DNA of 29,037 nucleotides from a virus (taxonomy: Duplodnaviria; Heunggongvirae; Uroviricota; Caudoviricetes). Where the stretch lies: the IMG/VR virus record IMGVR_UViG_3300045988_046105, positions 1 through 29,037 of that record; one strand, 5' to 3'. Within the stretch, counting starts at the first letter, position 1, and each line of letters starts with the position of its first letter. A program made the position numbers and the translations under genes. The notes below the pieces were generated by a model that searched no databases, had not been told where the DNA came from, and worked only from the letters and a program-made list of their open reading frames with translations. Below are positions 283 through 21,694 of the stretch, piece by piece.

Positions 283-283
283 A

Positions 284-748: not shown

Positions 749-757
749 GAAGGTGTT

Positions 758-970: not shown

Positions 971-1011
971 ATACTGCCGCCAACTATGGCGGCTTTATTT
1001 TGCATGGTACT

Positions 1012-1028: not shown

Positions 1029-1044
1029 TATTACCACGGTGGTT

Positions 1045-3113: not shown

Positions 3114-3159
3114 TCCGTTAGCGGGGATAATGACGGAGATATCCTCTGGTGAGGATAAA

Positions 3160-3190
3160 ACAAAGCCAGCTCATCGGCTGGCTGTTTGTG
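3160..3190. terminator. bidirectional intrinsic terminator between convergent terminase and accessory gene
   Basis: Hairpin AGCCAGC-TCATCG-GCTGGCT (3164-3183), A-tract upstream and GTTTGT downstream on + strand. Confidence 0.5.
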
Positions 3191-3199
3191 ACATGTCAC
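3188..3199. repeat. exact palindrome GTGACATGTCAC, copy 2 (14-mer TGTGACATGTCACG)
   Basis: Read directly; 4 bp downstream of the stop of minus-strand gene 3204..3575. Confidence 0.9.
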
Positions 3200-3203
3200 G
3201 GTG

Positions 3204-3575
3204 TTATTGCTCGCTTAACTTCTGCTTCAGCAAGTAACCTTCAAGCATCCAGATTTTGTTTACAGCATTCTGCCGGGCAATCTTCCGACCAATTCCCGCA
3301 TCAAAGTTTTCCGGGCTTGCACAGGCGCTCTCTCCGGTGACGGTGAAGCCGTTGCGCAGCACCAGAACGCAGAACGTCAGCAGAGAAAGTGATTCGTGCG
3401 GCTGGTAGTTTACCTCTCCGCCAGTATGTTTCGCTTTTATGGCTACGCCAAAGACACCATCTTCTGCTGTGAAATATGCCTCCTGAGCAATAATGCTCTC
3501 GATATGGTCTGGCGTAACGCGCGGCGCGGCTAAACCTTTAGCCTGAATTTCAGATTCAATGTCTTTGTCACTCAT
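3204..3575 (-). CDS. conserved small phage protein of unknown function (123 aa); family not confidently identified
   Basis: Strong SD AAGGTGAG 8 nt before ATG; motif ...LLTFCVLVLRNGFTVTGESACASPENFDAGIGRKIARQNAVNKIWMLEGY... recalled from many enterobacterial prophage proteins. Opposite strand to all flanking virion genes. Confidence 0.65.
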   Translation of the reverse strand: MSDKDIESEIQAKGLAAPRVTPDHIESIIAQEAYFTAEDGVFGVAIKAKHTGGEVNYQPHESLSLLTFCVLVLRNGFTVTGESACASPENFDAGIGRKIARQNAVNKIWMLEGYLLKQKLSEQ

Positions 3576-3591
3576 AGTCTAATCTCACCTT

Positions 3592-3615
3592 AAAAAAATG
3601 CCCGGCGAACCGGGC
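3592..3615 (-). terminator. terminator-like hairpin plus U7 immediately upstream of the RBS of 3204..3575
   Basis: Minus strand: GCCCGG-UUCG-CCGGGC followed by AUUUUUUUAAGGUGAG; the SD begins right after the U-tract. Confidence 0.4.
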
Positions 3616-3691
3616 GAACTGGAAGCAATGAGTTATGCCTTCCGTGGCTGTACTGGTTTACAGCATGAAGTCATCGCAATGGCGTCCTGCT

Positions 3692-3735
3692 GTAAAAAGG
3701 GCGGTGATAGTCCTTCAAGGGAAACCATCACCGCC
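3692..3735 (-). terminator. hairpin downstream of tRNA-Arg (possible tRNA terminator)
   Basis: 9-bp inverted repeat GGCGGTGAT/ATCACCGCC with 18-nt loop, followed on minus strand by CUUUUUA. Confidence 0.3.
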
Positions 3736-3778
3736 AAGCACCTGGAACTTCTGGCATCACGGTCCTTAGGCGTGATTC

Positions 3779-3855
3779 TGGCGTGGCATGCAGGATTCGA
3801 ACCTGCGACCAACCGCTTAGAAGGCGGTTGCTCTGTCCAACTGAGCTAATGCCAC
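3779..3855 (-). tRNA. tRNA-Arg (anticodon UCU), 77 nt, CCA encoded
   Basis: Hand-folded reverse complement GTGGCATTAGCTCAGTTGGACAGAGCAACCGCCTTCTAAGCGGTTGGTCGCAGGTTCGAATCCTGCATGCCACGCCA: 7-bp acceptor, 4-bp D stem, 5-bp anticodon stem, loop CUUCUAA, 5-bp T stem with TTCGAAT loop. Confidence 0.9.
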
Positions 3856-4176
3856 AACGCTGAGAGCACTTAGCCTGTTAAGGCGCCACACTTTGTCGCG
3901 GCTCCATAAATGCTCTCATCGTTGTACCCTCGTCTCTTCCGAGGCGTCACACCGAATCGCCGGGATGGTGAATCCCCGTGCGCGGAATAAAACCGCTCGA
4001 CTTGCACATTCCGGCTACCTGGTTCGTTTGCCCGAGCAAGGGAGGGTGCCCCTTAAACGTATCCAGACCGCTATCGTCGCATGTGCCATACGCCGTACTG
4101 CTCAAAATAAAAGCTCACTCCACCTGTTCAATTTAACGACAAGCCAGTCAGGTTAATAACCGGAATGAACTATTTA

Positions 4177-4193
4177 CTTACCTGAAGGGTAAT
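4177..4193. promoter_or_regulatory. operator-like palindrome CTTACC-TGAAG-GGTAAT (site S6) upstream of the portal operon
   Basis: Read directly; sits in the ~420-bp non-coding region 3856-4282 about 90 bp upstream of the first structural-operon ATG. Confidence 0.4.
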
Positions 4194-4282
4194 AATTCGT
4201 GCATTAAATGTCAACTATCTACGATAAATAAATCATATGTGGTTAAATTGGTAATAATTTAATTGCGTACGGAGTCATTGAT

Positions 4283-4489
4283 ATGTGCATGGGTAGCTCA
4301 CCATCAGTGCCTGCAACACCAGAAGTTCAGGCAGCACCACAGGAGCAGGATGCCGCCGTTGTTGATGCCCGCGACGAAGAAACACGTCGCCGTCGCGCTG
4401 CTGCTGGTCGTAGTTCTACGCTGCTTACCGGTTCTCAGGGCGACACATCAACCGCTAATACCAGCGGTAAAACGCTGCTTGGTCAGTAA
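4283..4489 (+). CDS. small hypothetical protein (68 aa)
   Basis: ATG with GGAG SD; RBS context GGAGTCATTGA-ATG is duplicated almost exactly at the portal start (4491-4506). No recognisable domain. Confidence 0.45.
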   Translation: MCMGSSPSVPATPEVQAAPQEQDAAVVDARDEETRRRRAAAGRSSTLLTGSQGDTSTANTSGKTLLGQ

Positions 4490-4503
4490 CCGGAGTCATT
4501 GAA

Positions 4504-6183
4504 ATGGCGGAAACAACTAAAGAGCGATTGAACAAACAGTTCGCACAACTTGAAAGCGAGCGTCAGTCGTTCGAGCCGCACTGGCGCGAGTTGAGTGATT
4601 ACATCAACCCGCGTGGTTCCCGCTTTCTGACTTCTGAGGTCAACCGTAACGATCGACGCAATACACGCATTATTGATTCGACCGGGACTATGGCGGCGCG
4701 CACTCTCGCCAGCGGCATGATGTCAGGCATCACAAGCCCCGCCCGTCCGTGGTTTCGCCTGGCTACGCCAGATCCTGAAATGATGGATTATGGCCCTGTT
4801 AAGTTGTGGCTTGAGGCGGTGCAGAACCGCATGAACGATATGTTCAATAAGTCGAATCTCTACCAGTCTCTTCCGCAGTTATACGGAAGCCTCGGCACAT
4901 ACAGCACTGGTGCAATGGCGGTGCTGGAGGATGACGAGGACATCATTCGCACAATGCCATTCCCTATAGGCAGTTACTACCTGGCTAACTCACCTCGTGG
5001 CAGTGTGGACACCTGTTTCCGCAAGTTCTCTATGACTGTTCGTCAGCTTGTTCAGGAGTTCGGGCTAAATAACGTCAGCGAATCCGTAAAAAGCATGTGG
5101 GAAAGCGGCACCTACGAGAAGTGGATTGAAGTGATGCATTCGGTTTACCCGAACATTGACCGCGATACATCGAAGCTGGATAGCAAGAACAAGCCATTCA
5201 AATCGGTTTATTACGAGGTTGGTGGCGATAACGACAAGTTGTTGCGTGAGTCCGGATTCGATGAGTTTCCAATTATGGCTCCGCGCTGGGAAGTTAACGG
5301 CGAAGATGTTTATGGATCATCATGCCCGGGTATGCTGGCGCTTGGACCTGTTAAGGCATTGCAGCTTCTCCAGAAGCGCAAGTCGCAGTTGATTGATAAA
5401 GCCACCAATCCGCCGATGGTTGCTCCGACTTCCCTCAAGAATCAGCGCGCCTCCCTTCTTCCTGGCGACATCACGTATATCGATCAGATTACTGGTCAGG
5501 ATGGCTTCAGGCCTGCTTATCTGGTTAACCCCAGTACAGCAGATTTGGTGGCAGACATTCAGGACACCCGTCAAATCATTAACAGCGCCTACTTTGTCGA
5601 TCTGTTCATGATGTTGCAGAACATCAATACCCGCTCGATGCCTGTTGAAGCGGTAATCGAAATGAAAGAAGAAAAACTTCTGATGTTGGGGCCGGTTCTG
5701 GAGCGTCTGAACGACGAATGTCTTAATCCTCTCATTGACCGCGCTTTCTCGATGATGGTGCGTAAAAACATGCTGCCGCCACCGCCTGACGCGATGGAAG
5801 GCATGCCCCTGAAGGTCGAATACATTTCCGTCATGGCTCAGGCGCAGAAGTCTATCGGCCTGTCCAGTCTGGCGTCCACGGTTAACTTCATTGGTCAACT
5901 TGCGCAAGCGAAACCAGAAGCTCTCGACAAACTCAACGTTGATCAGGCGATCGATGCATTCGCTGATATGTCCGGAGTGTCTCCAACCGTCATTGTTCCG
6001 CAGGAACAGGTTGAGCAGGCTCGCCAGCAACGGGCACAGCAGCAACAGCAGCAACAAATGATGGCGATGGGGATGGCGGCGGCACAGGGTGTCAAGACGC
6101 TAAGTGAAGCTAAAACTTCGGATCCGAGTGTGTTGTCAGCTATGGCGAATGCAGTTAGTGGTCAGGGTGGGCAATCACAATGA
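4504..6183 (+). CDS. portal (head-to-tail connector) protein, T7 gp8-like
   Basis: 559 aa; overall pattern and Q/M-rich C-terminus (QQQQQQQMMAMGMAAAQG) resemble T7 gp8 as recalled; position after terminase. Confidence 0.85.
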   Translation: MAETTKERLNKQFAQLESERQSFEPHWRELSDYINPRGSRFLTSEVNRNDRRNTRIIDSTGTMAARTLASGMMSGITSPARPWFRLATPDPEMMDYGPVKLWLEAVQNRMNDMFNKSNLYQSLPQLYGSLGTYSTGAMAVLEDDEDIIRTMPFPIGSYYLANSPRGSVDTCFRKFSMTVRQLVQEFGLNNVSESVKSMWESGTYEKWIEVMHSVYPNIDRDTSKLDSKNKPFKSVYYEVGGDNDKLLRESGFDEFPIMAPRWEVNGEDVYGSSCPGMLALGPVKALQLLQKRKSQLIDKATNPPMVAPTSLKNQRASLLPGDITYIDQITGQDGFRPAYLVNPSTADLVADIQDTRQIINSAYFVDLFMMLQNINTRSMPVEAVIEMKEEKLLMLGPVLERLNDECLNPLIDRAFSMMVRKNMLPPPPDAMEGMPLKVEYISVMAQAQKSIGLSSLASTVNFIGQLAQAKPEALDKLNVDQAIDAFADMSGVSPTVIVPQEQVEQARQQRAQQQQQQQMMAMGMAAAQGVKTLSEAKTSDPSVLSAMANAVSGQGGQSQ

Positions 6184-6476
6184 CAGATTACGAAGACGAT
6201 CAACTGAAAGAAGAAAACGCCCGTAAGCAACGTGACATGGCACAGCGTGAAATTGATGACATTCGCTTTGTCATGAGCAGTGAACAGGGGCGTCGCGTTG
6301 TCTGGTCGGTGCTGGAGAAAGGCCGTGTGTTTTCCGCTATCTCTCCGATGGATGCTATGGCAATGGCATTTAATGAGGGGCAACGCAATCTGGCGCTGGA
6401 ACTGTTTCAGCGCGTTATGGCGCATTGCCCTGAACAGTATTTGAAGATGGCCAAAGAGGCCAGTGAACAGGAGTGA
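6180..6476 (+). CDS. hypothetical virion-module protein (98 aa)
   Basis: ATG overlaps portal stop (ATGA); acidic small protein; no family recognised. Confidence 0.5.
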   Translation: MTDYEDDQLKEENARKQRDMAQREIDDIRFVMSSEQGRRVVWSVLEKGRVFSAISPMDAMAMAFNEGQRNLALELFQRVMAHCPEQYLKMAKEASEQE

Positions 6477-6478
6477 TC

Positions 6479-7174
6479 ATGAATTTATTTGAGCGTTTGC
6501 TGTATCGCCGTCTTTGCAATGAGCAACCAGTCGATGGTGGAGCAGCTCCGGCTGCGTCAGAACCGTCAGCGCCTGCAGGTGATAACCCTGCTCCAGTTGG
6601 TGATCCATCACAACAGGAAGGTGATAAGCCACAACCTGTTGCTGATGGCGATAAACCTGCTGATGACAAAAAGCCTGAAAACGATAAGCAGGATGAAAAA
6701 AAGGACGGCGATAAACCAGAGGGTGCGCCTGAGAAGTACGAGTTTCAGGCTGCCGAAGGCGTAGAGCTGGATACAGAAGCGTTGAAGGAATTCGAGCCGG
6801 TGGCGCGAGAACTAAACCTGACCAACGAGCAAGCGCAAAAGCTGGTTGATGCTTATCCGAAGATTCTGGCAGGTGTGCAGCAGCGCCAGGCAGAAGCCTG
6901 GCAGAAAACAACCGAGCAGTGGGCTGCTGATGTAAAAGCTGACAAAGAAATCGGTGGCGACAAGTTGATTTCTAACCTTAGCGCCGCACAGCGTGCGCTT
7001 GACCAGTTCGGGACACCTGAGCTCAAAGAATATCTGAACACCACCGGACTGGGTAATCACCCTGATCTGGTCAAAACGTTCGTGAAAATCGGAAAGGCGA
7101 TGTCTGAGGATGGCATGGTCACCGGTGGTAATGAAGGCCAGCGTAGTGCGGCCGAAGTGCTCTATGGCAAATAA
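6479..7174 (+). CDS. scaffolding protein (predicted)
   Basis: ATG 6479 with AGGAG SD (track start 6473 is GTG). Acidic low-complexity N-half (DGDKPADDKKPENDKQDEKKDGDKPE) and helical C-half; sits between portal and major capsid. Confidence 0.65.
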   Translation: MNLFERLLYRRLCNEQPVDGGAAPAASEPSAPAGDNPAPVGDPSQQEGDKPQPVADGDKPADDKKPENDKQDEKKDGDKPEGAPEKYEFQAAEGVELDTEALKEFEPVARELNLTNEQAQKLVDAYPKILAGVQQRQAEAWQKTTEQWAADVKADKEIGGDKLISNLSAAQRALDQFGTPELKEYLNTTGLGNHPDLVKTFVKIGKAMSEDGMVTGGNEGQRSAAEVLYGK

Positions 7175-7188
7175 GAGAGGAAATAACA

Positions 7189-8175
7189 ATGGCTGTTAAA
7201 GGCTTAACTGCGCTAACGCTGGCTGACTGGGGTAAGCGCGTCGATCCAGATGGGAAAGTCGATAAGATTATCGAGCTTCTCGGTCAAACTAACCCGATCC
7301 TTCAGGATATGCCTTTTGTCGAAGGGAACCTTCCTACCGGACACAAAACCACCATTCGTTCTGGTTTACCTTCAGCTACCTGGCGTTTGTTGAACTATGG
7401 CGTACAACCAAGCAAATCAACCACAGTGCAGGTCACCGATTCCATTGGTATGTTGGAAACCTATGCTGAAGTCGATAAGTCACTGGCTGATCTGAGCGGC
7501 AATACCGCCGAATTCCGCCTGTCTGAAGACCGCGCATTTATTGAAGCGATGAATCAGCAGATGGCGCAGACGCTGTTTTATGGTGATTCCAGCGTTAACC
7601 CTCAGCAGTTTATGGGACTGTCCTCCCGCTATTCCAGCCTGTCTGCGGGTAATGCTCAGAACATCATTGATGCTGGTGGCACGGGTACAGATAACACCTC
7701 AATCTGGTTAGTGGTGTGGGGCGAAAACACCGTGCATGGCATCTTCCCGAAAGGGCAGAAGGCTGGCATCCAGATGGAAGATAAAGGCCAGGTGACACTG
7801 GAAGATGCTAGTGGCGGCAAGTACGAAGGCTATCGTACCCATTACAAATGGGATAACGGACTTTCTCTGCGTGACTGGCGTTATGTTGTTCGCATTGCAA
7901 ACATCGATGTCAGCAATCTTTCAGAACCTTCCTCTGCCGCAAATATTGCGAAGTTGATGGTTAAAGCACTGCATCGCATTCCAAATCGTGGCATGGGTCG
8001 CCCGGTGTTCTACATGAACCGCACTGTAGGCCAGGCTCTTGATCTGCAATCTCTGGAGAAAACATCTCTGGCGATCAGCGTAAAAGAGACAGAAGGAGAG
8101 TGGTGGACTTCATTCCGTGGTGTACCAATCCGTGAAACTGATGCGCTTCTGGAAACAGAAGCCCGCGTGGTGTAA
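7189..8175 (+). CDS. major capsid protein
   Basis: 328 aa, strong SD GAGAGG, directly after scaffold; size and position; family not identified without a search. Confidence 0.8.
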   Translation: MAVKGLTALTLADWGKRVDPDGKVDKIIELLGQTNPILQDMPFVEGNLPTGHKTTIRSGLPSATWRLLNYGVQPSKSTTVQVTDSIGMLETYAEVDKSLADLSGNTAEFRLSEDRAFIEAMNQQMAQTLFYGDSSVNPQQFMGLSSRYSSLSAGNAQNIIDAGGTGTDNTSIWLVVWGENTVHGIFPKGQKAGIQMEDKGQVTLEDASGGKYEGYRTHYKWDNGLSLRDWRYVVRIANIDVSNLSEPSSAANIAKLMVKALHRIPNRGMGRPVFYMNRTVGQALDLQSLEKTSLAISVKETEGEWWTSFRGVPIRETDALLETEARVV

Positions 8176-8226
8176 CGCCTGTTATTAACCTGTGGGTCGT
8201 AACAGACCCACTAATGGAGAAAGAAG

Positions 8227-8664
8227 ATGATCACCGACAAACTGTTGATGTTCTCCGAAGCACAGGCGGTAATTGATACCGCGGCTTCTACTGACGTAAT
8301 CGATCTCGGTCCAATTGACGGAAAACGTCGTGATATCGGCGTTGGTTACCCGCTTGAGTTTTGGGCGCTGGTTAACACAGCCGCCGCGGCAAGCGGTGAT
8401 GCAACTGTAAACATCCAGTTGCAGACGAGTGAGAATAACAGCTCATGGACCACTATTTATGATAGTGGCGCACTGGCAAAGACCGCCCTGACAGCAGGTA
8501 AACGAGTTGTTTCTGCAAAGGTGCCTGCCGGTGTTCAGCGATATCTGCGTGTTAACTACTCCGTCGCAACTGGCCCACTAACGGCTGGCGAATTCACTGC
8601 TGGTATCAGTCTTGATGTTGATGCCAATACGCCGTATCCGATCCGCTCAAAAGTAACTGGTTAA
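8227..8664 (+). CDS. capsid decoration / structural protein (predicted)
   Basis: 145 aa, beta-rich, SD GGAGAAAG, immediately downstream of major capsid gene. Confidence 0.45.
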   Translation: MITDKLLMFSEAQAVIDTAASTDVIDLGPIDGKRRDIGVGYPLEFWALVNTAAAASGDATVNIQLQTSENNSSWTTIYDSGALAKTALTAGKRVVSAKVPAGVQRYLRVNYSVATGPLTAGEFTAGISLDVDANTPYPIRSKVTG

Positions 8665-8674
8665 GGTGATATCG

Positions 8675-9010
8675 ATGTCAGGTGAGAAACCAAGATACCG
8701 CGTTCTGCGCCTCTCTCATATCCATAACACTCTGTGGCCGGAGGGGGCAGAAATCGAATACGAAGGTGAGCCTGGTAGCGCACTGGAACCTGTTAACGAT
8801 GCAGCCAGACAGGCAAAAGCAAAAGTTGCAGGAAAAGTGTCAATGGCAGCAACCAGCACCAAAATCATCAACGATGTGTCAGATGATGGTGAACTGGATA
8901 AGCTCCGTGAAGAGTACGAATTGCTCTTTAACGAGAAGCCACACCATAACGCCAAAGCCGAAACGCTCCGCGAGAAGATCGCAGATAAGCGTAAAGAACT
9001 GGGCGTGTAA
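8675..9010 (+). CDS. hypothetical protein
   Basis: ATG 8675 with AAGGTGA SD (track start 8666 is GTG); charged C-half; followed by a terminator. Confidence 0.5.
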   Translation: MSGEKPRYRVLRLSHIHNTLWPEGAEIEYEGEPGSALEPVNDAARQAKAKVAGKVSMAATSTKIINDVSDDGELDKLREEYELLFNEKPHHNAKAETLREKIADKRKELGV

Positions 9011-9026
9011 GCCTCGCGGATCAGAC

Positions 9027-9048
9027 AAGGGGCTTCGGCCCCTTTATT
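9027..9048 (+). terminator. intrinsic terminator after capsid gene block
   Basis: AAGGGGC-TTCG-GCCCCTT followed by TTATT. Confidence 0.6.
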
Positions 9049-9054
9049 GCAGGA

Positions 9055-9384
9055 GTGTATATGGAACTCGTAAACCTCAAAACCGGCACTGACAGCTACC
9101 AGGATGAGAGCGGAGAAACCAGAACTCGCGATGAATACCCGTGGGGGCTGTGCATCACTCTTAATAACGACACATTGAATAAGCTGAAGGCGCAACCTCA
9201 GGGCGTCGGAACAGAAGTGATGATAACTGCAAAGGCTGTTATTCGAGGTCTGTCTGCCAGAGAAACTGACGATGGTGTTAATCGCAGCGCCGATCTGCAG
9301 ATCACTGATATGGCAATCGCTCCTGTTTCCGGTGATGTAGAAAAATCAGCGGCTGAAACCCTCTACGGTAACGGGGGTGAGTGA
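9055..9384 (+). CDS. hypothetical virion protein (109 aa)
   Basis: SD AGGAG; stop overlaps next start. Confidence 0.5.
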   Translation: MYMELVNLKTGTDSYQDESGETRTRDEYPWGLCITLNNDTLNKLKAQPQGVGTEVMITAKAVIRGLSARETDDGVNRSADLQITDMAIAPVSGDVEKSAAETLYGNGGE

Positions 9385-9989
9385 TGGCCTCTGTAGTAGA
9401 GATCTGTAATCGTGCGCTGTCCAATATTGGCAACAGCCGCAGCATTAACAGCCTGACGGAAGCCAGCAAGGAAGCAGGGGAATGTTCGCTGCACTTTGAG
9501 GCCTGCCGTGATGCTGTGCTTTCTGATTTTGACTGGAACTTTGCTACCAAACGCGTGGCGCTTGCAGATACGAACAATCCACCGCCTGACTGGGAATATG
9601 CGTATCAGTACCCGTCCGATTGTCTGCGCATTACTGAAATTATGCTTCCTGGTGTACGCAATCCAACAGCAGCAATGCGCGTTCAGTACGAAGTTGGTGC
9701 AGACACCAACGGAACAGGAAAGTTGATCTACACAGACCAGCCGCAGGCATGGCTCAAGTATGTCTCTCGCGTTTCAGATGTGAACATGTTTGATGCCATT
9801 TTTATGGAGGCGTTGGCCTGGCGTCTTGCGGCAGCTATTAACATGGCGCTGACTGGGAATGCAGACCTCGGTACGTTTGCCCTCAATATGTACAATCGCG
9901 TGATTCTTAGTGCTGGCTCGCATAGCCAGAATGAATCACAGGAACCACAGCCACCGGTTGATGAGTTTACCATTGCGAGGTTGTCCTGA
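9384..9989 (+). CDS. tail tubular protein A-like (adaptor/gatekeeper, T7 gp11-like)
   Basis: About 200 aa; N-terminal pattern N-AL-IG...L-E......W-F resembles T7 gp11 (recollection); precedes the gp12-like gene. Confidence 0.55.
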   Translation: MASVVEICNRALSNIGNSRSINSLTEASKEAGECSLHFEACRDAVLSDFDWNFATKRVALADTNNPPPDWEYAYQYPSDCLRITEIMLPGVRNPTAAMRVQYEVGADTNGTGKLIYTDQPQAWLKYVSRVSDVNMFDAIFMEALAWRLAAAINMALTGNADLGTFALNMYNRVILSAGSHSQNESQEPQPPVDEFTIARLS

Positions 9990-12460
9990 TGGCTATCAGT
10001 TGGATCCAGCCCAGCTTTGCCGGTGGTGAGATTGGACCGTCGTTGTACGGGCGTATTGACATGGCGAAGTACCAGGTGGCATTGCGCAAGTGCGATAACT
10101 TTATCGTGCGGCAGTATGGCGGCGTTGAGAATCGACCTGGTACGCGTTTTGTCGGTGCCGCCAAATACCCAAATCGGAAATGCCGCCTGATCCCGTTCCA
10201 GTTCTCGACGGTTCAGACCTATGCTCTGGAGTTCGGACACCAGTACATGCGCGTTATCAAAGATGGTGCGTTGGTGCTGAACAGCAGCAATGTTATTTAT
10301 GAAATTGCCACGCCATATACTGAAGCCGATCTGTTCCGAATTAAATTCACGCAAAGCGCCGACGTGCTTACGCTGGTTCATCCGGCATACCCGCCGAAAG
10401 AGTTGCGTCGCTATGCGCATGACAACTGGCAACTGGTTGATGTGGTAACGAAGAACGGGCCATTTGAAGATATCAATATTGACGAGTCAGTGACGGTTTA
10501 TGCCAGCGCCAGCACCGGGACAATTACGTTAACGGCAAGCGCCTCTATTTTTGGCGCGGAGCAGGTAGGCAAATTGTTCTATCTGGAACAGCCTGCAGTG
10601 GATTCTGTGCCGGTATGGGAAACCAGTAAGAGTACGTCGATTGGCGATATTCGCCGTGCAGACAGTAACTACTATCGCGCCGTTACAGCAGGCAAAACAG
10701 GTACTTTGCGCCCTTCGCATACAGAAGGCACATCATGGGATGGCTGGGGCGGATCCGGTGATGATGATACTGGCATTGAGTGGGAATATCTGCACAGTGG
10801 TTTTGGCATTGCCCGTATCACTGCTGCAAATGGAACTACTGCAACTGCCGAGGTGATTTCCTATATCCCTTCGCAGGTAGTTGGCGAGGATAATGCCAGC
10901 TATAAATGGGCTAAATATGCCTGGAACAGTGTTAATGGTTATCCTGGCACTGTTGTTTATTATCAACAACGTCTTTACTTCGCCGCATCGACTGCGTTCC
11001 CTCAGACTATCTGGGCCAGCCGTACCGGGGATTATAAGGATTTTGGCAAAAGCAATCCTACGCAGGATGACGACAGAATTATCTACACCTATGCCGGGCG
11101 TCAGGTTAATGAGATCCGCCACCTGATTGATGTCGGTTCGCTGGTGGCACTGACTTCCGGAGGTGAGTACGTCATCACCGGCTACCAGAACAAAGTATTA
11201 ACCCCATCATCATTTGCATTCAGCTCTCAGGGATCAAATGGCTCGAGCAATGTCCCACCAATTGCCGTGGCGAATATTGCTCTGTTCGTCCAGGAGAAAG
11301 GCAGTGTTGTCCGTGATCTGGCCTACTCATTCGATGTTGACGGCTATCAGGGGAACGACCTTACTATCCTTGCCAATCATCTTTTTCAGAAGCACAGCAT
11401 TGTTGACTGGTGCTTCTCTATTGTCCCTTACTCCAGCGCCTTCTGCATTCGTGATGACGGTAAATTACTGGTGATGACCTATTTGCGTGATCAACAGGTT
11501 TTTGCATGGGCACCACAATCCAGTACCGGAAAATATGAAAGCACATGCAGTATCAGCGAAGGCAATGAAGATGCGGTGTATTTCGTCGTTAACCGAACCG
11601 TTAACGGGCAAACAGTGAGATACATCGAGAGACTGTCCAGCCGTTTATTTACCAGCGATGAAGATGCTTTCTTTGTTGATTCTGGCCTTAGCTATGATGG
11701 AAGAAATACGTCTGACAGAACGATGACCATCACTGGTGGTTCTGGTGAATGGGATTACCGCGCGGAATATACAATCAGTGTTTCTGGTGGTGCGTACTTC
11801 ACCAGTAGTGATGTCGGTGCGCAACTACAGTTCCCTTATGCCGGAACTGATCCTGATACTGGCGATAAAGTGTCAAAAGAATTACGTTGCGACATTATTT
11901 CTGTAACCAGCAATACCGCTGTAGTGGTTCGTGCCAACAGGAACGTCCCGCCATCCCTCAGGAATGCGGCCACCACGAACTGGCAGATGGCGCGCCGGAC
12001 ATTTGGAGGCCTGTCTCATCTTGAAGGCCAGACCGTAAACATTCTCTCTGATGCGAACGTGGAACCACAGAAAGTGGTTTCCGGAGGTGCCGTCACGCTG
12101 GAATCTCCGGGGGCTGTAGTGCACATCGGCCTGCCAATAACTGCTGAATTCGAAACACTGGATGTCAACATTAACGGACAGGAAACGCTGCTGGACAAAA
12201 AACAGGTGATCCCCTCCGTTACTCTGGTTGTGAATGCCAGTCGCGGCATCTGGGCGACTACGCCCGGCGGTAAATGGTACGAATATCCACAGCGTGAATT
12301 CGAGTTCTACGATGATCCTGTTGATGATGCTACCGGAAAAGTAGAAGTGAAACTGGACAGTAACTGGGGCAAAAACGGACGTGTAAAAATCCGTCAGCTT
12401 GATCCGTTGCCGCTGTCTGTTCTTGCCGTTATTCCTCGCCTTACTGTTGGGGGATTCTGA
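9989..12460 (+). CDS. tail tubular protein B-like (nozzle, T7 gp12-like)
   Basis: 823 aa, size and position after gp11-like gene; start overlaps upstream stop (TGATG). Confidence 0.6.
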   Translation: MAISWIQPSFAGGEIGPSLYGRIDMAKYQVALRKCDNFIVRQYGGVENRPGTRFVGAAKYPNRKCRLIPFQFSTVQTYALEFGHQYMRVIKDGALVLNSSNVIYEIATPYTEADLFRIKFTQSADVLTLVHPAYPPKELRRYAHDNWQLVDVVTKNGPFEDINIDESVTVYASASTGTITLTASASIFGAEQVGKLFYLEQPAVDSVPVWETSKSTSIGDIRRADSNYYRAVTAGKTGTLRPSHTEGTSWDGWGGSGDDDTGIEWEYLHSGFGIARITAANGTTATAEVISYIPSQVVGEDNASYKWAKYAWNSVNGYPGTVVYYQQRLYFAASTAFPQTIWASRTGDYKDFGKSNPTQDDDRIIYTYAGRQVNEIRHLIDVGSLVALTSGGEYVITGYQNKVLTPSSFAFSSQGSNGSSNVPPIAVANIALFVQEKGSVVRDLAYSFDVDGYQGNDLTILANHLFQKHSIVDWCFSIVPYSSAFCIRDDGKLLVMTYLRDQQVFAWAPQSSTGKYESTCSISEGNEDAVYFVVNRTVNGQTVRYIERLSSRLFTSDEDAFFVDSGLSYDGRNTSDRTMTITGGSGEWDYRAEYTISVSGGAYFTSSDVGAQLQFPYAGTDPDTGDKVSKELRCDIISVTSNTAVVVRANRNVPPSLRNAATTNWQMARRTFGGLSHLEGQTVNILSDANVEPQKVVSGGAVTLESPGAVVHIGLPITAEFETLDVNINGQETLLDKKQVIPSVTLVVNASRGIWATTPGGKWYEYPQREFEFYDDPVDDATGKVEVKLDSNWGKNGRVKIRQLDPLPLSVLAVIPRLTVGGF

Positions 12461-13475: not shown

Positions 13476-15989
13476 ATGCCAGTTGTACCAACAACATCGG
13501 GCCGTCAGGTTCAGAGCAGAGGGATTTCGACGCAGGGATTCTCATCGTTTCAGACACCAAATGTCGGTGATGTACTTGGCGATGTTGCAGAGCAATATGC
13601 AGGTATTATTGCGCAGGCAAAACAGCGTGCGAATGTTGCTATGGCTCAGGATGCTTCTCTTAGCTTAAGCCAGATAAGCAGCGATCTGCTGAATAACCCT
13701 GAAACAGGTTTGCTTAACCTGAAAGGGAAAAATGCTATTGGAAAAGGTCAGGAGTATACGCAGCAGTTTGATGCTCAGATCGAACAACTGGCTATGTCGC
13801 TGCCGGATGAACAGGCTCGTAATGCTTTCATGCAGCAGGCGCAGCAGCAGCGCATTCAGTTCACTACGCAGGCCGGGCGGCACGAGATATGGCAAATAAA
13901 TGCCTACGAAGAAGGCCAGTTTCAGGCTACGCTGCTGAACAATGGTAAAAATGCCGCAGCATTGTATGGCGACAACGCCGCATACGTATTGGCTAATAAG
14001 CAAACTTTCCAGCAAATTGAGGATTACGGCATTGCACATGGCTGGAGTGACGAGCAAATCCAGGCCAAGAAAATCGAGTTTAAAGAAGCAACAGCAAAAG
14101 CAACTGCTCAAAATGCTATTGGAGCAAACTATCTTCAGGTAAGACAGCAAAACGGCGAGTTAAGCGATACTGCTGCTGGTTCTCGCCGTGCTGTAGCAGA
14201 TAGTGGCTCTTCCGATCGTACCCGCGGTATACGCAACAATAACCCCGGCAATCTTGAATACAGCAAAACTAATCCGTGGGTTGGGCAGACTGGTGATGAT
14301 GGTCGCTTTGCCAAATTCGAAACCCCTGAACACGGTATTCGTGCATTAGGGCGGAACCTGATGTCGTATCAGCGGCAGGGTATTGATACCGTCAGCGAGA
14401 TAATTAATCGCTGGGCACCGCCTACTGATAAAAATGACACTATGTCGTATATCAAAGCAGTGTGCGAACAACTTGGCGTTTCTGCTGATGAGCCTCTCGA
14501 TGCATCAAATCCTGATACCCTGAAGGCGCTTTGTGCAGCCATTATCCATCATGAAAACGGTAGCCAGCCATACAGTGATCAGCAGTTAACTGCAGGTGTT
14601 AGTGCTGCGCTGGGGCTTTCTCAGCTACCGACAAAAAATAAACGTTATACCGGTGTAGCCTGGTTCGATGCTTTAAGTGAATCAGATCAGGCCAGCGTGT
14701 TGCGACAGACTGATGCACTAGCCAGACAACAGCAGGCTGAATATAAAACGATGCTCGACAGCCGGGTTCGCGATGCGACGGCTGCGTATATGCGTGGCAT
14801 TGAATTTCCTAACCCACCTGGTGAGGATGATTTTATTGCAGCTTATGGAGTCAGAGAAGGAAACCTGCGATATACCGAGTTTAAGAATACGCAGATCGCC
14901 GGACAGTATATAGGCTCTTTCCGCAACATGCCGACAAGCAGCATTACAGCATATGTTGAGCAATTACGCCCGGATACTGGTGATACAGGGGAGGGGTATG
15001 CGGCACGCGCAACTCTTTATGACAACGTTGTTTCGGCTGCAAATCAGGTGATAAAGCAGCGGCAGTCGGATCCTGTGCAGTTCTCTCTTGCCTCCGGACA
15101 GGCAAAGCCTATCGACATGAGCAATAAGGATAACTTTGGACAGAGCGTTGCCTTGCGTGCCGCTCAGGTCAGTGACCTTGCTAAGTCATATGGCACTCCA
15201 CTGACGTTCTTTTCCAAAGACGAGGCCAATCAGATCGGTGTTTTCTTTCGTGATGCGCCAGTTTCCCAACAGGCAGCATATCTCGATACCATCAGGCAGA
15301 GCACTGGTGGTGGGCAGGTGTATATGTCAGCACTACAGCAGATCAGTGCCAACGCTCCATCTGCTGCCGTTGCCGGGATACTGATGGATAAGCCTGGTGG
15401 TATTTTGGCAGAAAAAAACTGGTTTAATCCGGATGTTTCCGTGTCTCCTGAAACCGCTGCGCAGACAATTCTTGCTGGCGCGGCGGCTCGTAAAGGTACT
15501 GATGATGCGAAAGGTATTCCGATGCCTAAAGATGCTGATCTTCGCCTTGAGTTTTCTGACATGGTGAAGGATGCATTTGCTGGTGACGCTCAGGGCGCAT
15601 CAATGGCATACGAGATCGCAAAGGATTATTACGCTGGTGTGATGGCGAAAAAAGGCGTGGTATCAGGCGAAATTGACAATGATGTCTGGAAACAGGCTGT
15701 TAACGTAGCTACAGGTGGCGTGCATGACTATAACGGAATGGGGAATGTCCTTTTGCCGTGGGGAATGTCTGCAGAGCAATTCGATAAGCAGGTTAATCAG
15801 GCTTGGAATGAACAAGTTGTCGGCTCCGGGATAAAAACACCGCCTGGTCAGTATGGTTTGCAAAGTTACGGCGATAGTCAGTACCTGGTGAAACTTGGTA
15901 CTGGTTATCTGCTGAAAGATGATGGTTCTCCCGTTGTTCTTAATCTGACACAGAAGCGTCAGAGATTCTCCGGAGATATTCCGCAATGA
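13476..15989 (+). CDS. internal virion / ejection protein (gp15 position) with embedded NPGN-motif domain
   Basis: 837 aa, SD AAGGGGA; contains GIRNNNPGNLEY...WAPP...IHHENG segment (nt ~14200-14600). Confidence 0.55.
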   Translation: MPVVPTTSGRQVQSRGISTQGFSSFQTPNVGDVLGDVAEQYAGIIAQAKQRANVAMAQDASLSLSQISSDLLNNPETGLLNLKGKNAIGKGQEYTQQFDAQIEQLAMSLPDEQARNAFMQQAQQQRIQFTTQAGRHEIWQINAYEEGQFQATLLNNGKNAAALYGDNAAYVLANKQTFQQIEDYGIAHGWSDEQIQAKKIEFKEATAKATAQNAIGANYLQVRQQNGELSDTAAGSRRAVADSGSSDRTRGIRNNNPGNLEYSKTNPWVGQTGDDGRFAKFETPEHGIRALGRNLMSYQRQGIDTVSEIINRWAPPTDKNDTMSYIKAVCEQLGVSADEPLDASNPDTLKALCAAIIHHENGSQPYSDQQLTAGVSAALGLSQLPTKNKRYTGVAWFDALSESDQASVLRQTDALARQQQAEYKTMLDSRVRDATAAYMRGIEFPNPPGEDDFIAAYGVREGNLRYTEFKNTQIAGQYIGSFRNMPTSSITAYVEQLRPDTGDTGEGYAARATLYDNVVSAANQVIKQRQSDPVQFSLASGQAKPIDMSNKDNFGQSVALRAAQVSDLAKSYGTPLTFFSKDEANQIGVFFRDAPVSQQAAYLDTIRQSTGGGQVYMSALQQISANAPSAAVAGILMDKPGGILAEKNWFNPDVSVSPETAAQTILAGAAARKGTDDAKGIPMPKDADLRLEFSDMVKDAFAGDAQGASMAYEIAKDYYAGVMAKKGVVSGEIDNDVWKQAVNVATGGVHDYNGMGNVLLPWGMSAEQFDKQVNQAWNEQVVGSGIKTPPGQYGLQSYGDSQYLVKLGTGYLLKDDGSPVVLNLTQKRQRFSGDIPQ

Positions 15990-20487: not shown

Positions 20488-20868
20488 ATGAGAAAAGTAT
20501 TTTTGATTTTTGGATTTATGCTTCTCGTTGGATGCCAGTCAGCTGCACAGTTTGAAAGAAATATGCTTACGTGGCGCGGGCAGAGTATAGACGCAATGGT
20601 TCAGCAGTGGGGGTATCCTCAGGGAGAGCTTACATCTCCAGATGGAAACAGAGTGTATGTTTACTCAAGCTCTGGTAGTTATAACGTACCACAAACCACA
20701 ACGTATAATACTACGTCTAATCTAATTGGTAATACTATATATTCAAACACATACGCAACAACTGATGGCGGTTATACACTCCATTTCAGTTGCTCTGTTT
20801 ACGTTGAGTTTGGTGCTGATAAGATTATTAAAAATGTTACATGGCGCGGTAATAATTGCGTTGCGTGA
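20488..20868 (+). CDS. lipoprotein (moron; candidate superinfection-exclusion / receptor-masking factor)
   Basis: ATG 20488 with AGGGG SD; signal peptide MRKVFLIFGFMLLVGC with lipobox LVGC; AT-rich gene unlike flanking virion genes; stop inside palindrome copy 3. Confidence 0.6.
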   Translation: MRKVFLIFGFMLLVGCQSAAQFERNMLTWRGQSIDAMVQQWGYPQGELTSPDGNRVYVYSSSGSYNVPQTTTYNTTSNLIGNTIYSNTYATTDGGYTLHFSCSVYVEFGADKIIKNVTWRGNNCVA

Positions 20869-20876
20869 CATGTCAC
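20865..20876. repeat. exact palindrome GTGACATGTCAC, copy 3 (14-mer in inverted orientation, CGTGACATGTCACA)
   Basis: Read directly; overlaps lipoprotein stop codon. Confidence 0.9.
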
Positions 20877-20901
20877 AGGCCGCTTTCGCGGCCTTGTTTT
20901 T
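20877..20901 (+). terminator. intrinsic terminator of lipoprotein gene
   Basis: AGGCCGC-TTTC-GCGGCCT followed by TGTTTTTA. Confidence 0.6.
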
Positions 20902-21061
20902 AACGAATGCCACCGCCACCCGGGCGGGAATCCGCAGAACGCCCACCGCAGCGGGAGCCGTCAGCAGCAGTGTCGCTGTCGTGCTGACAACGACCGGCAA
21001 AGGCCTGAGTTGAAGCTACCAGAGACAACAAAACGAACAGTGCAGCAAATGCTTTTTTCAT
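20900..21061 (-). CDS. small secreted Cys-containing peptide (53-aa precursor; ~31-aa mature Gly/Arg/Asp-rich peptide)
   Basis: Internal ATG 21061 gives MKKAFAALFVLLSLVASTQAFA-GRCQHDSDTAADGSRCGGRSADSRPGGGGIR: classic signal peptide with AxA site, two Cys, E. coli-like codons. SD is weak. Confidence 0.35.
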   Translation of the reverse strand: MKKAFAALFVLLSLVASTQAFAGRCQHDSDTAADGSRCGGRSADSRPGGGGIR

Positions 21062-21133
21062 TGTTAAATTTCCATCTATAAGCCACCTCAATGTGGCGTT
21101 AATGAGTGTAGCACTGACTTTTGTTTCGTCCAC

Positions 21134-21154
21134 AAAAAAGCCCGCAGCGCGGGC
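21134..21154 (-). terminator. intrinsic terminator directly after stop of 21155..21694
   Basis: Minus strand: GCCCGC-GCU-GCGGGC followed by UUUUUU. Confidence 0.6.
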
Positions 21155-21694
21155 TTACCAAAACTTGTACCACGGGGATTTATCCTTCAATGGACAATCC
21201 TTCCATCGTGTGGCCAACCATTCATATTCTTTAAAATATGTGTTTATGTTTTCTTTTTCTCTAATGGCTTGTATAAGAGGTAGCGCAATCTGATAGTTAT
21301 TTACAACGGAGCTGTAAAATACTTCCTTAATCATGGTCTCATCATAAGTTTTCCGCTTCACGCTCACAGCCATGCGTTCGTAGAAACCTAGACAGTAAAT
21401 TATTTCTCTCTTCTCTGTCTTTTCTTCATCCGTAAGATCAGCCTGCCCATTGCTTGGATACATATAAGAGCGGAATGATTTGTTCGATTCGTGAATGCGG
21501 CGCATAGTAGATAGGCCTTTCTTATAATCTACATCAAACCTGCTTTCACCAAGGAATACTGAAGTGTGTACTTTTCTCGCTGTATTTACATTATAAATAA
21601 TAGTAGCGATAGCTATGAACAAGCCAAGCGAAACCGCGACTGCACTTACGATTTGAGCCACAGCCATGGCAAATTGCATTTCTTCACTTAACAC
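21155..21694 (-). CDS. membrane-anchored protein with ~150-aa predicted cytoplasmic domain (candidate exclusion/abortive-infection factor)
   Basis: GTG 21694 with GGAGA SD 6 nt upstream (alternative ATG 21679). One long N-terminal TM helix followed by basic residues. AT-rich. No family recognised. Confidence 0.55.
   Translation of the reverse strand: MLSEEMQFAMAVAQIVSAVAVSLGLFIAIATIIYNVNTARKVHTSVFLGESRFDVDYKKGLSTMRRIHESNKSFRSYMYPSNGQADLTDEEKTEKREIIYCLGFYERMAVSVKRKTYDETMIKEVFYSSVVNNYQIALPLIQAIREKENINTYFKEYEWLATRWKDCPLKDKSPWYKFW

Follow-up and report, generated by a model that had tools for sequence, protein, structure and literature searches.

The question raised by this locus is whether a short GC-rich patch in an epsilon15/phiV10-like (Uetakevirus) prophage encodes a real protein and, if so, what such a small product may do. 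In the window, that is, the whole stretch of 29,037 nucleotides analysed, the GC content is 0.67 at positions 20900-20999 and 0.32-0.46 in the flanks, bearing out the original prediction of a GC-rich patch within AT-rich DNA; only 0.2% of 100-bp segments in the window reach 0.67. The part encoding the mature peptide has GC1/GC2/GC3 values of 0.74/0.77/0.55, with GC3 in the range of the neighbouring phage genes. Because GC1 and GC2 are high and GC3 is phage-like, the source of the patch is amino-acid composition, not foreign base composition. At high-GC loci, naive ORF calling gives many spurious ORFs. The minus-strand frame is open across 20900-21133, and an ATG at 21061 and a stop codon at 20900-20902 delimit a product of 53 amino acids, MKKAFAALFVLLSLVASTQAFA followed by GRCQHDSDTAADGSRCGGRSADSRPGGGGIR:

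20900-21061, minus strand: coding sequence of the 53-aa pre-peptide, stop codon included (RefSeq WP_000708858.1, PHROG 14503, purifying selection)

In an identical E. coli prophage, exactly this CDS is annotated in RefSeq, in agreement with the coordinates, strand and content first proposed. Small secreted phage peptides are rarely annotated, but this one is: it is the RefSeq/GenBank CDS WP_000708858.1 and gp43 of TL-2011b (YP_007001994.1, 'putative transmembrane anchored protein'), and it matches the PHROG 14503 profile with E=2.3e-40, residues 1-53 covering all 53 positions of the profile. PHROG 14503 and PHROG 3117, both named 'transmembrane anchored protein', are thus the same family as the window peptide. 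This name, also borne by 57 close homologues, is descriptive only. A 77-aa, GTG-started version (PHROG 3117) was rejected, as its start lies inside the T-run of the upstream terminator and the extension is unconserved. Full-text literature searches with the family name, DGSRCG, SADSRPGG and other fragments, the RefSeq accession, TL-2011b and phiV10 returned nothing on the peptide.

The ORF is short and overlaps ORFs of 95 aa (plus strand) and 85 aa (minus strand, other frame), several frames being open in the GC-rich patch, so that one might suspect that a GC-rich non-coding element happens to contain an open frame, or that the real feature is on the other strand or at the RNA level. The original prediction had itself left room for a spurious ORF, to be judged by conservation of the frame in homologues. 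We found that the pattern of synonymous and non-synonymous change is specific to the peptide frame. Specifically, in comparisons of the window with 13 enterobacterial homologues (NG86), the 25 codons of the mature core gave pS of 0.55-1.0 and pN of 0-0.17, the latter rising to 0.11-0.40 in the signal peptide; relative to other enterobacterial genera, synonymous sites of the core are nearly saturated and its amino acids almost unchanged. For example, there are 15 synonymous and no non-synonymous differences from Buttiauxella, and three and none, respectively, from TL-2011b. Such strong purifying selection on the core codons, together with a signal architecture that is kept, excludes a spurious ORF. 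The protein is, moreover, conserved out to cyanobacteria despite diverged DNA, and an Rfam search gave no match at or near the gathering threshold, only two sub-threshold chance matches, both upstream of the peptide gene. What sets the ORF apart from chance is its conservation, not its composition, and the suspicion that there is no gene here is, as far as sequence evidence reaches, already refuted, so that we give it practically no credence.

The gene lies within a cassette of about 290 bp, in which a promoter-like site and a 5' hairpin precede the ORF and a hairpin terminator comes after it. The elements are the following:

21155-21694: upstream gene DUF4760, adjoining the peptide cassette
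21138-21156, minus strand: intrinsic terminator of the DUF4760 gene (8-bp stem with six GC pairs, then TTTTGTGGAC)
21127-21132, minus strand: predicted -35-like hexamer TGGACG (four of six matches), read from the sequence directly after the terminator T-run
21105-21113, minus strand: predicted extended -10-like element TGcTACACT (positional conservation in homologues)
21082-21097, minus strand: 5'-leader hairpin GCCAC-attgag-GTGGC (folding energy and compensatory changes)
21071-21073, minus strand: weak Shine-Dalgarno-like GGA, 9 nt before the ATG (sequence reading)
20877-20894, no strand assigned: GC-rich hairpin, 5 nt past the stop codon (terminator search)
20865-20876, no strand assigned: 12-bp perfect palindrome GTGACATGTCAC, downstream edge of the shared cassette

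The terminator of DUF4760 forms the upstream edge of the cassette, and the block common to TL-2011b and others begins there despite a different upstream gene. The two promoter-like hexamers are spaced by 16 nt and agree with the consensus at 8 of 12 positions, and were thus unreported by our scan, whose threshold was 9 of 12; a TAnnnT hexamer (TACAAT, TACACT, TATTAT, TACTTT or TACGCT) nevertheless occurs at equal distance in most enterobacterial homologues, and the site may have promoter activity. The leader hairpin, with a minimum free energy of -9.3 kcal/mol (z -1.98), begins at about the predicted transcript start; four of its five pairs show double-sided compensatory changes, and nine unrelated stems of 5-8 bp occupy this position in different genera. 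The GGA is contained within a conserved leader motif, (C)TACACAUGG(U/A)AAG. We considered whether the conserved 'CACAUGG' of the leader might be a coding uORF or an extended start; since homologues differ in the frame that it has relative to the main ATG, this idea was dropped. Terminators are present on both sides of the gene, the hairpin at 20877-20894 being a full terminator for the converging plus-strand gene; on the peptide gene's own strand it has no U-run here, whereas homologues outside the uetakeviruses have a post-stop hairpin with a T-run (L005, L006, L013 and L016). The palindrome occurs three times in exact form in the window (at 737, 3188 and 20865), and its position is kept in uetakeviruses of E. 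coli, Klebsiella, Kluyvera and Buttiauxella. The cassette would make up a small transcription unit of its own: starting at a sigma70-like promoter just behind the neighbour's terminator, the transcript would run from a 5'-terminal stem-loop through a weak ribosome-binding site and the ORF to a hairpin terminator. The peptide gene is probably expressed from the lysogen.

The cassette turns up again in other epsilon15/phiV10-like (Uetakevirus) prophages. The shared block (approximately 20864-21155) was found beside different genes in TL-2011b, phiv142-3, HEMP4 and Klebsiella phages: one flank has Ant or a lipoprotein ORF, the other YafO/DUF2335 or DUF4760. In the window, the genes flanking the peptide are DUF4760, a lipoprotein-like ORF and BRO-N. 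Identical or near-identical proteins are encoded by TL-2011b, phiv142-3, HEMP4, EC.W1-9 and 547 complete E. coli genomes, the region being carried by 547 of the 5426 examined. The gene is missing in phiV10, O157 typing phages 9 and 10, and PAS61, and in phiV10 a remnant of only the last seven or so codons is fused onto the end of the BRO-N gene, so that the peptide gene is accessory and probably a classic "moron". Its variable presence among close relatives agrees with the definition of morons as summarised in PMC3573123 (a paper whose subject is neaT and which we used for this definition only), and the gene is dispensable.

The original prediction of a small Sec-exported peptide with two cysteines on the minus strand is supported both by the features of the sequence and by conservation among homologues. 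Its first part is the signal peptide:

20996-21061, minus strand: signal peptide, codons 1-22, MKKAFAALFVLLSLVASTQAFA (sequence features and family conservation of positions -3/-1)

The n-region carries K2 and K3, the h-region is AFAALFVLLSLVA, with a hydrophobic core of about 13-14 residues, and the polar c-region ends in STQ-A-F-A|G, so that the 53-aa protein shows the charged n-region, the h-region of 7-15 residues and the small residues at -3/-1 typical of Sec export and signal peptidase I. The site is Q-A-F-A|G-R-C with the cysteine at mature +3, and thus differs from a lipobox, L-[AS]-[GA]-C. Placed from these features and from conservation, cleavage is predicted after A-F-A, and would leave a mature peptide of 31 aa (about 3060 Da, pI about 8.1) with eight Gly, five Arg and four Asp, in which Cys25 and Cys38 are separated by 13 residues. 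All aligned homologues (20 of 20 and 46 of 46) have small residues at -3/-1, while the h-region diverges. Across the family the sequence of the signal peptide drifts but the n/h/c architecture and the A/S/V-x-A|G site stay, as one would expect if an export signal is cleaved off. The leader, being of the Sec type and not double-glycine, the neighbours DUF4760, lipoprotein-like ORF and BRO-N, and the lack of any neighbour conserved across loci led us to reject a class II microcin or bacteriocin precursor.

The N-terminal helix could also be read as an uncleaved N-in, C-out anchor, leaving the periplasmic cysteine pair to modulate an inner-membrane sensor or transporter in the way that MgrB acts on PhoQ. 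A length of 53 aa with a hydrophobic helix followed by a periplasmic two-cysteine segment resembles MgrB, and some relatives have the module tethered by a lipobox or a TM helix, so that a function near the membrane would be compatible with it. However, the hydrophobic core of only about 13 residues, followed by a polar c-region, is too short for a typical membrane anchor, and the small-x-small|G site is kept across phyla and the helix sequence is not, which argues for cleavage. There is also no sequence similarity to MgrB, the only NCBIfam matches having E>0.07. We thus regard such an anchored regulator as quite improbable, and in the databases a cleavable signal peptide has probably been misread as the anchor of a 'transmembrane anchored protein'.

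The mature part contains the segment that is most constrained:

20915-20989, minus strand: conserved mature core, codons 25-49, CQHDSDTAADGSRCGGRSADSRPGG, a Cys-Cys loop module (46-sequence alignment)

Its consensus is C-x4-D-x-A-x-D-G-S-R-C-G-x-R-S/A-A-x-x-R-P-G-G. In the 46-sequence alignment, C25, C38, R41, G48 and G49 are invariant and A32, D34, G35, S36, G39 and R46 nearly so. The four residues after Cys25 vary (QHDS, QHPD, DHSW, NVPS and TYPD). The peptide is not confined to one phage but belongs to a very large family: its close homologues across Enterobacterales fall into 57 clusters, and the family comprises at least 874 clusters when grouped at 90% identity and 356 when grouped at 50%. 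Members occur in Gamma- and Alphaproteobacteria, cyanobacteria and other groups, in most cases close to genes of phages or mobile elements. The family was located in 57 species-level genomes, among them those of Rhizobiales, cyanobacteria, Vibrio, Bacteriovorax and Polyangiaceae, with core identities of about 60-75% in tblastn segments from rhizobia and cyanobacteria. The neighbours of distant members include holin-endolysin-Rz, terminase plus HNH, integrase, Phage_lysozyme2, GTA_holin, Collar, ANT, IS66, KilA-N and Abi_alpha, and some distant members lie on IMG/VR viral contigs of about 40 kb. One, however, is situated among housekeeping genes (bacA, ffh), indicating that the family is not strictly phage-borne. 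All-against-all BLAST of the ORFs from 58 loci revealed no partner gene in common other than those of the phage backbone.

The architecture of the relatives is diverse. Tandem copies of the module were found in P0064, P0081 and P0082; in the P0076/P0097 group the module is N-terminal, with a TM helix and then a cytoplasmic domain behind it; some cyanobacterial relatives are lipobox-tethered; and a 4-Cys variant is fused to SH3_3, with two fusions located (P0203 and P0159). Co-occurring Pfam domains are scarce, SH3_3 being present in 3 and PG_binding_1 in 2 of the 76 long relatives. Neither Pfam nor NCBIfam matched the peptide or the module in longer relatives, PDB sequence and structural searches found no counterpart or structural analogue, and PADLOC defence HMMs gave no match to the peptide at E<=0.1. 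Judged by its sequence, then, the mature core is a widespread extracytoplasmic mini-module outside the curated domain databases.

AlphaFold2 with the wider alignment gave a model of only moderate overall confidence (mean pLDDT 73), in which residues 31-40 reach about 84 and form a beta-bridge between 31 and 37 around a D34-G35 turn, and the C-terminal tail falls to about 50. The spacing D30-x-A-x-D34-G35-x-x-C38 matches that of the Excalibur motif, DxDxDGxxCE; the loop has acidic residues and a His cluster, and P0182, a 4-Cys relative, has a weak Excalibur match elsewhere in the protein, so that a calcium- or other metal-binding mini-domain, of the DxDxDG/Excalibur type or with a Cys/His site, may be envisaged. 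Against this, Ala occupies the middle ligand position in 91% of 197 unique modules, His27 and Asp28 are unconserved, neither the peptide nor the module region of the relatives matches Pfam Excalibur (PF05901) at E<=1, and in P0182 the Excalibur match (residues 94-131) and the module (206-229) are different segments, which makes metal binding very improbable.

This is a real coding gene under purifying selection, with a conserved export signal, a cassette structure, a broad family and an association with mobile elements. The reading that we favour, and hold to be likely, is that this accessory moron gene specifies a Sec-exported, cleaved, disulfide-looped periplasmic binding peptide made by the lysogen. 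Export by Sec and a cut by signal peptidase I after A-F-A would release the 31-aa peptide (about 3 kDa) into the periplasm, where Cys25 and Cys38 would be oxidised to close a 14-residue disulfide loop around the DG turn, followed by an Arg-rich R-S-A-x-S-R-P-G-G tail. The 25-residue core is, in this reading, an autonomous extracytoplasmic module, since in relatives it appears free, lipid- or membrane-tethered, in tandem or fused to envelope domains; this autonomy points to binding of a conserved envelope or periplasmic target, not to catalysis, and binding could result in lysogenic conversion or phage exclusion. The same is suggested by a mature sequence that is recognisable out to rhizobia and cyanobacteria, implying a conserved target.

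A more specific version of the binding model is a periplasmic inhibitor for superinfection exclusion, blocking a muralytic or ejection protein of an incoming phage, or a host or exogenous lysozyme or transglycosylase. Such inhibitors exist: T4 Spackle blocks the gp5 lysozyme, and Ivy, MliC and PliC block lysozyme or transglycosylase via a protruding loop. Consistent with this are the prophage- or mobile-element-borne state of the gene in most sampled contexts in Alpha- and Gammaproteobacteria, its position adjoining internal virion proteins, one of which (13476-15989) has a transglycosylase or endolysin-like region, and a Mesorhizobium neighbour that is a 780-aa Phage_lysozyme2 protein. A fixed scaffold with a variable four-residue loop after Cys25 has the look expected of a specificity loop, and we take the enterobacterial C-Q-H-D to be reminiscent of the CKPHDC loop of Ivy. 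However, this His-Asp pair is unconserved beyond Enterobacterales and some Rhizobiales, homology to Sp, Ivy, MliC and PliC is absent, as is any PADLOC, PDB or fold match, and the tandem and tethered forms suit a module that anchors or binds better than one that inhibits an enzyme, so that inhibition appears unlikely, though less so than an anchored regulator or a metal site. A bolder form of the binding-peptide reading, which we regard as possible but doubtful, is that the core is an undescribed disulfide-loop domain, spread by prophages across Proteobacteria and present in cyanobacteria too, that recognises an envelope component which is universally conserved (candidates being peptidoglycan, lipid-linked precursors and muralytic enzymes), with the x4 loop setting specificity; if so, the free phage form would be a new class of periplasmic effector, for instance one that excludes superinfecting phages or remodels the envelope.

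When accessory prophage genes have promoters of their own, they often alter host surface, phage susceptibility or virulence, and the very small ones are the least studied. The peptide gene is present in about 10% of complete E. coli genomes, ExPEC, APEC and EHEC-associated phages among them. Since a mature peptide of 31 aa can be synthesized, binding, phage-exclusion and structural experiments would be cheap, and practical outcomes could be the definition of a new domain family and the correction of a misleading name.

Among known systems, similar in gene organisation are the morons Bor and Lom of lambda, Cor of phi80/HK022 and Llp of T5, each a small accessory gene between essential modules, variably present and encoding an exported envelope protein. 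A putative promoter and a terminator of its own would add to the likeness, the promoter match here being below threshold but its -10 box positionally conserved. Bor, Cor and Llp are lipoproteins and Lom is an outer-membrane barrel; the window peptide lacks a lipobox, is far smaller and resembles none of them in sequence. The Spackle (Sp) protein of T4, a lytic phage, is small (about 97 aa), helical and periplasmic and has a signal peptide; it has no homology to the window peptide but may be a plausible functional analogue. MgrB, a membrane peptide of 47 aa, inhibits PhoQ and has two functionally important periplasmic cysteines, its helix being an uncleaved anchor; it is similar to the window peptide in size, N-terminal hydrophobic helix and periplasmic cysteine pair, but differs in sequence and in that a conserved signal-peptidase site predicts release of the window peptide. 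With Excalibur (PF05901) and DxDxDG calcium loops the peptide shares the D-x-x-x-D-G-x-x-C spacing and the presumed nature of an extracellular Cys-bridged mini-domain, but its first Cys lies 13 residues before the second instead of about 30, and there is no HMM match. The 4-Cys variant PHROG 27544, C-x-C-P-Y-N-x-A-x-N-G-S-R-C-G-G-R-S-A-Y-S-R-P-G-G-x-x-P-x-C, which is also absent from Pfam, differs in carrying a further two cysteines and helices at its flanks, which make up a domain of about 65 aa, and in often being SH3-fused, but it matches the window peptide with E=4e-6 and has the G-S-R-C-G-x-R-S-A-x-S-R-P-G-G half in common with it.

We found that the minus-strand ORF at 20900-21061 is an ATG-started frame of 53 codons whose product reads MKKAFAALFVLLSLVASTQAFA followed by GRCQHDSDTAADGSRCGGRSADSRPGGGGIR (ORF table and sequence). 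Residues 1-22 are built like a Sec signal peptide, with two Lys, a hydrophobic core of 13-14 residues and a polar c-region ending in A-F-A; the mature part has 31 residues (~3060 Da, pI ~8.1), among them 8 Gly, 5 Arg, 4 Asp and two cysteines, Cys25 and Cys38, 13 residues apart. The GC content is 0.67 at 20900-20999 versus 0.32-0.46 in the flanks, a level reached by only 0.2% of 100-bp intervals across the whole window. Since the GC1, GC2 and GC3 of the mature part are 0.74, 0.77 and 0.55, with GC3 in the range of the neighbouring phage genes, the GC-rich patch stems from amino-acid composition. By ORF, composition and GC profile, the original prediction of such a patch encoding, on the minus strand, a Sec signal peptide and a Gly/Arg/Asp-rich two-Cys peptide was correct in every particular. 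An identical CDS is present in RefSeq (WP_000708858.1, "hypothetical protein", E. coli prophage; 100% identity over a 311-bp query across the locus), and the existence of the gene is not new.

The same prediction had allowed for a spurious ORF and had named conservation of the frame in homologues as the check. A search for close homologues among 5.8 billion proteins gave 57 close clusters, from Escherichia, Shigella, Klebsiella, Citrobacter, Cronobacter, Franconibacter, Salmonella, Pectobacterium and Dickeya, in whose alignment C-x-H-D-x-D-T-A-A-D-G-S-R-C-G-G-R-S-A-D-S-R-P-G-G (codons 25-49) is almost invariant and the signal peptide drifts. Nei-Gojobori counts at the DNA level, comparing the window with homologues of 13 other enterobacterial loci, gave for this 25-codon core a pS near saturation (0.55-1.0) and a pN of 0-0.17, replacements being rare; for example, 15 synonymous and no non-synonymous changes separate it from Buttiauxella, and three and none from phage TL-2011b. 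In the signal-peptide codons, pN was 0.11-0.40, more replacement being tolerated than in the core. The synonymous/non-synonymous pattern and the frame conserved across the 13 loci thus support the ORF and exclude a spurious or non-coding origin. This gene is protein-coding; very strong constraint acts on its mature part, and its export signal is kept as a signal, not as a sequence. Two overlapping ORFs, of 95 aa (plus strand) and 85 aa (minus strand), were rejected as by-products of the GC-rich stretch.

An epsilon15/phiV10-like (Uetakevirus) prophage is represented in the window by its late region and its right end. The genes run, in this order, from the small and large terminase, portal and major head protein through the internal virion proteins, of which one has a transglycosylase or endolysin-like region, to an 824-aa structural protein and an accessory region, and on to the tailspike, holins, a GH19 endolysin, a DUF2514 gene and the host gene yfgI. 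For the internal virion protein at 13476-15989 (plus strand), the matching PHROGs bear the annotations endolysin and tail injection transglycosylase, which points to a muralytic ejection protein carried by the phage. The late genes lie on the other strand from the peptide gene, which belongs to the accessory region and is surrounded by the following features.

21155-21694: DUF4760 gene, upstream of the peptide gene
21156-21138, minus strand: strong intrinsic terminator of the DUF4760 gene
21132-21127, minus strand: promoter-like TGGACG, directly past the terminator T-run (sequence reading)
Between TGGACG and TGcTACACT: spacer of 16 nt (sequence reading)
21113-21105, minus strand: TGcTACACT (sequence reading)
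21097-21082, minus strand: hairpin GCCAC-attgag-GTGGC, 5-bp stem
Between this leader hairpin and the ATG, minus strand: weak GGA ribosome-binding site (sequence reading)
20877-20894: GC-rich hairpin, 5 nt past the peptide-gene stop codon

The putative promoter matches 8 of 12 consensus positions and was not listed by the promoter scan; a TAnnnT hexamer lies at equal distance in most enterobacterial homologues. The post-stop hairpin has a T-run only for the converging plus-strand gene in this phage, and has its own T-run in homologues outside the uetakeviruses. The stems of the leader hairpin differ by genus (GCCGTC/GATGGC, AAGCCGC/GCGGCTT, TCGCCG/TGGCGG, TTGCC/GGCAA, ACAAATCG/TGATTTGT and others), span 5-8 bp, and show double-sided compensatory changes in four of five pairs (RNAalifold). 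A hairpin at the extreme 5' end of an mRNA, as in ompA, stabilises it against 5'-end-dependent decay, and by analogy this would be its likely role here. The enterobacterial genes share a conserved leader with the hairpin and a CTACACA motif; in the window (21062-21113, minus strand) it contains the TAnnnT box, the hairpin, the well-conserved (C)TACACA and AUGG(U/A)AAG just before the start codon. An upstream out-of-frame AUG within the leader motif is conserved in sequence and not in reading frame. The alphaproteobacterial homologues have no shared leader, with strong GGAGG-type sites in its place.

The block at about 20864-21155 is 96-99% identical to TL-2011b, phiv142-3, HEMP4 and EC.W1-9 and about 72% identical to Klebsiella phages, while the genes flanking it differ between phages (Ant or a lipoprotein-like ORF to one side, YafO/DUF2335 or DUF4760 to the other). 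In phage phiV10 the peptide gene is reduced to its final ~7 codons (…GGGGIR*), fused to the BRO-N stop codon. The phiV10 junction (2037-2062 of locus L004 versus 20900-20922 and 21904 of the window) is also where the annotated 29-aa PhiV10p22 starts; this is a deletion derivative, in a viable phage, from which the peptide gene and DUF4760-type genes have been lost. The region is present in 547 of 5426 complete E. coli genomes. With its terminators and leader elements, a shared block among changing neighbours, the phiV10 remnant and this distribution, the cassette appears self-contained and is dispensable and horizontally shuffled, the hallmarks of a moron as summarised in PMC3573123.

A perfect 12-bp palindrome, GTGACATGTCAC, is present in three exact copies (737-748, 3188-3199 and 20865-20876), where chance would give ~0.002 in 29 kb. 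Each copy lies at a gene end or a module junction. After copies one and two comes a similar GGTGTTAT extension; copy two itself follows a hairpin resembling a terminator, and copy three adjoins the bidirectional terminator beside the peptide gene. At this last junction the palindrome is conserved among uetakeviruses of E. coli, Klebsiella, Kluyvera and Buttiauxella despite different flanking genes; it may be an operator or recombination junction sequence. Beside the second copy, between large terminase and portal, a 123-aa ORF (3204-3575, minus strand; PHROG 322) looks like a further moron that has entered the late operon. A predicted lipoprotein ORF of 126 aa (20488-20868, plus strand; MRKVFLIFGFMLLVGC lipobox, PHROG 3716, no Pfam match) lies directly ahead of the shared terminator; in its place other uetakeviruses carry Ant or other genes. 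In E. coli G5 (locus L154, NZ_CM127462.1), which matches 100% at the peptide locus, the left part is different and rearranged relative to window 1-10600, and early-region genes abut a structural gene with a truncated N-terminus, annotated as a pseudogene; the window thus does not derive from G5, whose prophage is probably defective.

A scan of one genome per species gave 57 loci, including Tolumonas, Vibrio, Bacteriovorax and a Polyangiaceae MAG outside the Enterobacterales, many Rhizobiales (Mesorhizobium, Devosia, Rhizobium, Agrobacterium, Bradyrhizobium, Methylobacterium, Microvirga) and cyanobacteria (Dolichospermum, Anabaena, Nostoc and others). Profile searches returned 356 clusters at E<=1e-3 among 1.84 billion cluster representatives, and at least 874 in a 90%-identity collection. 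The conserved unit is C-x4-[D/Q]-x-A-x-D-G-S-R-C-G-x-R-[S/A]-[A/S]-x-x-R-P-G-G; in a 46-sequence alignment C25, C38, R41, G48 and G49 are invariant and A32, D34, G35, S36, G39 and R46 at least 90% conserved, in agreement with the position frequencies over 197 unique, regex-selected modules. The four residues past the first Cys vary (QHDS, QHPD, DHSW, NVPS, TYPD, DYPD). Most members consist of signal peptide, module and 1-5 more residues; the module also stands behind a lipobox (cyanobacteria, Beijerinckiaceae), before a ~120-aa domain (relatives P0086 and P0096), in two tandem copies (P0064, P0081, P0082), and as the sole external part of a bitopic protein (signal, module, "RNPDTDW", TM helix, ~170-aa cytoplasmic domain). 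The core is thus a portable extracytoplasmic module.

A four-Cys variant, C-x-C-P-Y-N-x-A-x-N-G-S-R-C-G-G-R-S-A-Y-S-R-P-G-G-x-x-P-x-C, corresponds to PHROG 27544 and is absent from Pfam and NCBIfam. It forms a ~65-aa domain (P0203, P0182, P0126, P0185 and related), in some cases in 2-3 tandem copies or after SH3_3; a bacterial SH3 domain was found in 3 of 76 long relatives, and the two located, P0203 and P0159, both carry this variant. Only PHROGs 14503, 3117 and 27544 contain the module; the first bears the descriptive label "membrane associated protein" in the moron category, and the other two are unlabelled. With no covering model in Pfam or NCBIfam and no sequence match in PDB, the mature core is a widespread, autonomous module, with a predicted disulfide loop, that has no counterpart in these databases.

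Outside the phage backbone, the loci share no conserved neighbouring gene. Family members are found on ~40-kb viral contigs (IMG/VR), beside holin-endolysin-Rz cassettes (Enterobacter, Kluyvera, Rouxiella), terminase and HNH genes (Devosia, Rhizobium, Agrobacterium) or integrases (Mesorhizobium, Rhodoferax, Kaistia), and near Phage_lysozyme2 virion proteins (Mesorhizobium), GTA-type holin, lysozyme and SLT (Microvirga), IS66 and P4-type cII (Rhizobium), Collar and ANT (Methylobacterium) and KilA-N and Abi_alpha (Rhizobium). Because such neighbours recur and one member lies in a housekeeping region, between bacA and ffh, the family is predominantly, not exclusively, borne by prophages and other mobile elements, in at least two proteobacterial classes.

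We propose that Sec exports the pre-protein, which is then cut after A22. The short hydrophobic core and conserved -3/-1 site count against both a permanent anchor and the name used in the database; the family label "transmembrane anchored" probably misdescribes a secreted peptide, and an uncleaved MgrB-like membrane regulator is improbable given the conserved cleavage site. In the oxidising periplasm, the two invariant Cys would form a disulfide closing a 14-residue loop. When given the wider alignment, AlphaFold2 placed a beta-bridge 31/37 around a D34-G35 turn (pLDDT ~84 for residues 31-40) and left the C-terminal tail poorly defined. That the loop binds calcium, as a DxDxDG/Excalibur type, is very improbable, being contradicted by Ala at the central ligand position in 91% of modules and by the lack of an HMM match. 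A 31-residue peptide cannot be an enzyme; near-invariant across phyla, tolerant of tethering and tandem duplication, and endowed with three invariant arginines, it probably acts by binding some conserved ligand in the envelope or periplasm. Since prophages carry the free form as a moron, its effect would most likely be to convert the lysogen or to exclude other phages. That the peptide is a bacteriocin or an extracellular signal is unlikely, given its Sec-type leader, the lack of export or immunity genes, and a mass of 3 kDa that would not let it pass the outer membrane unaided. Overall, we consider an exported, cleaved, disulfide-looped binding peptide with a conversion or exclusion effect probable. 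A specific version, with the peptide as an inhibitor of a muralytic or ejection enzyme like T4 Spackle or Ivy, is speculative and rather unlikely; the phage's own predicted muralytic ejection protein is relevant to it.

Neither the probable label error, the module nor the conserved leader was found in the searchable curated literature or domain databases, and the peptide is a solid, cheaply tested candidate for a new domain family and a prophage-encoded periplasmic effector. The gene itself will not surprise phage biologists: like phage morons, it codes for a small exported envelope protein, and is a further example of the kind.
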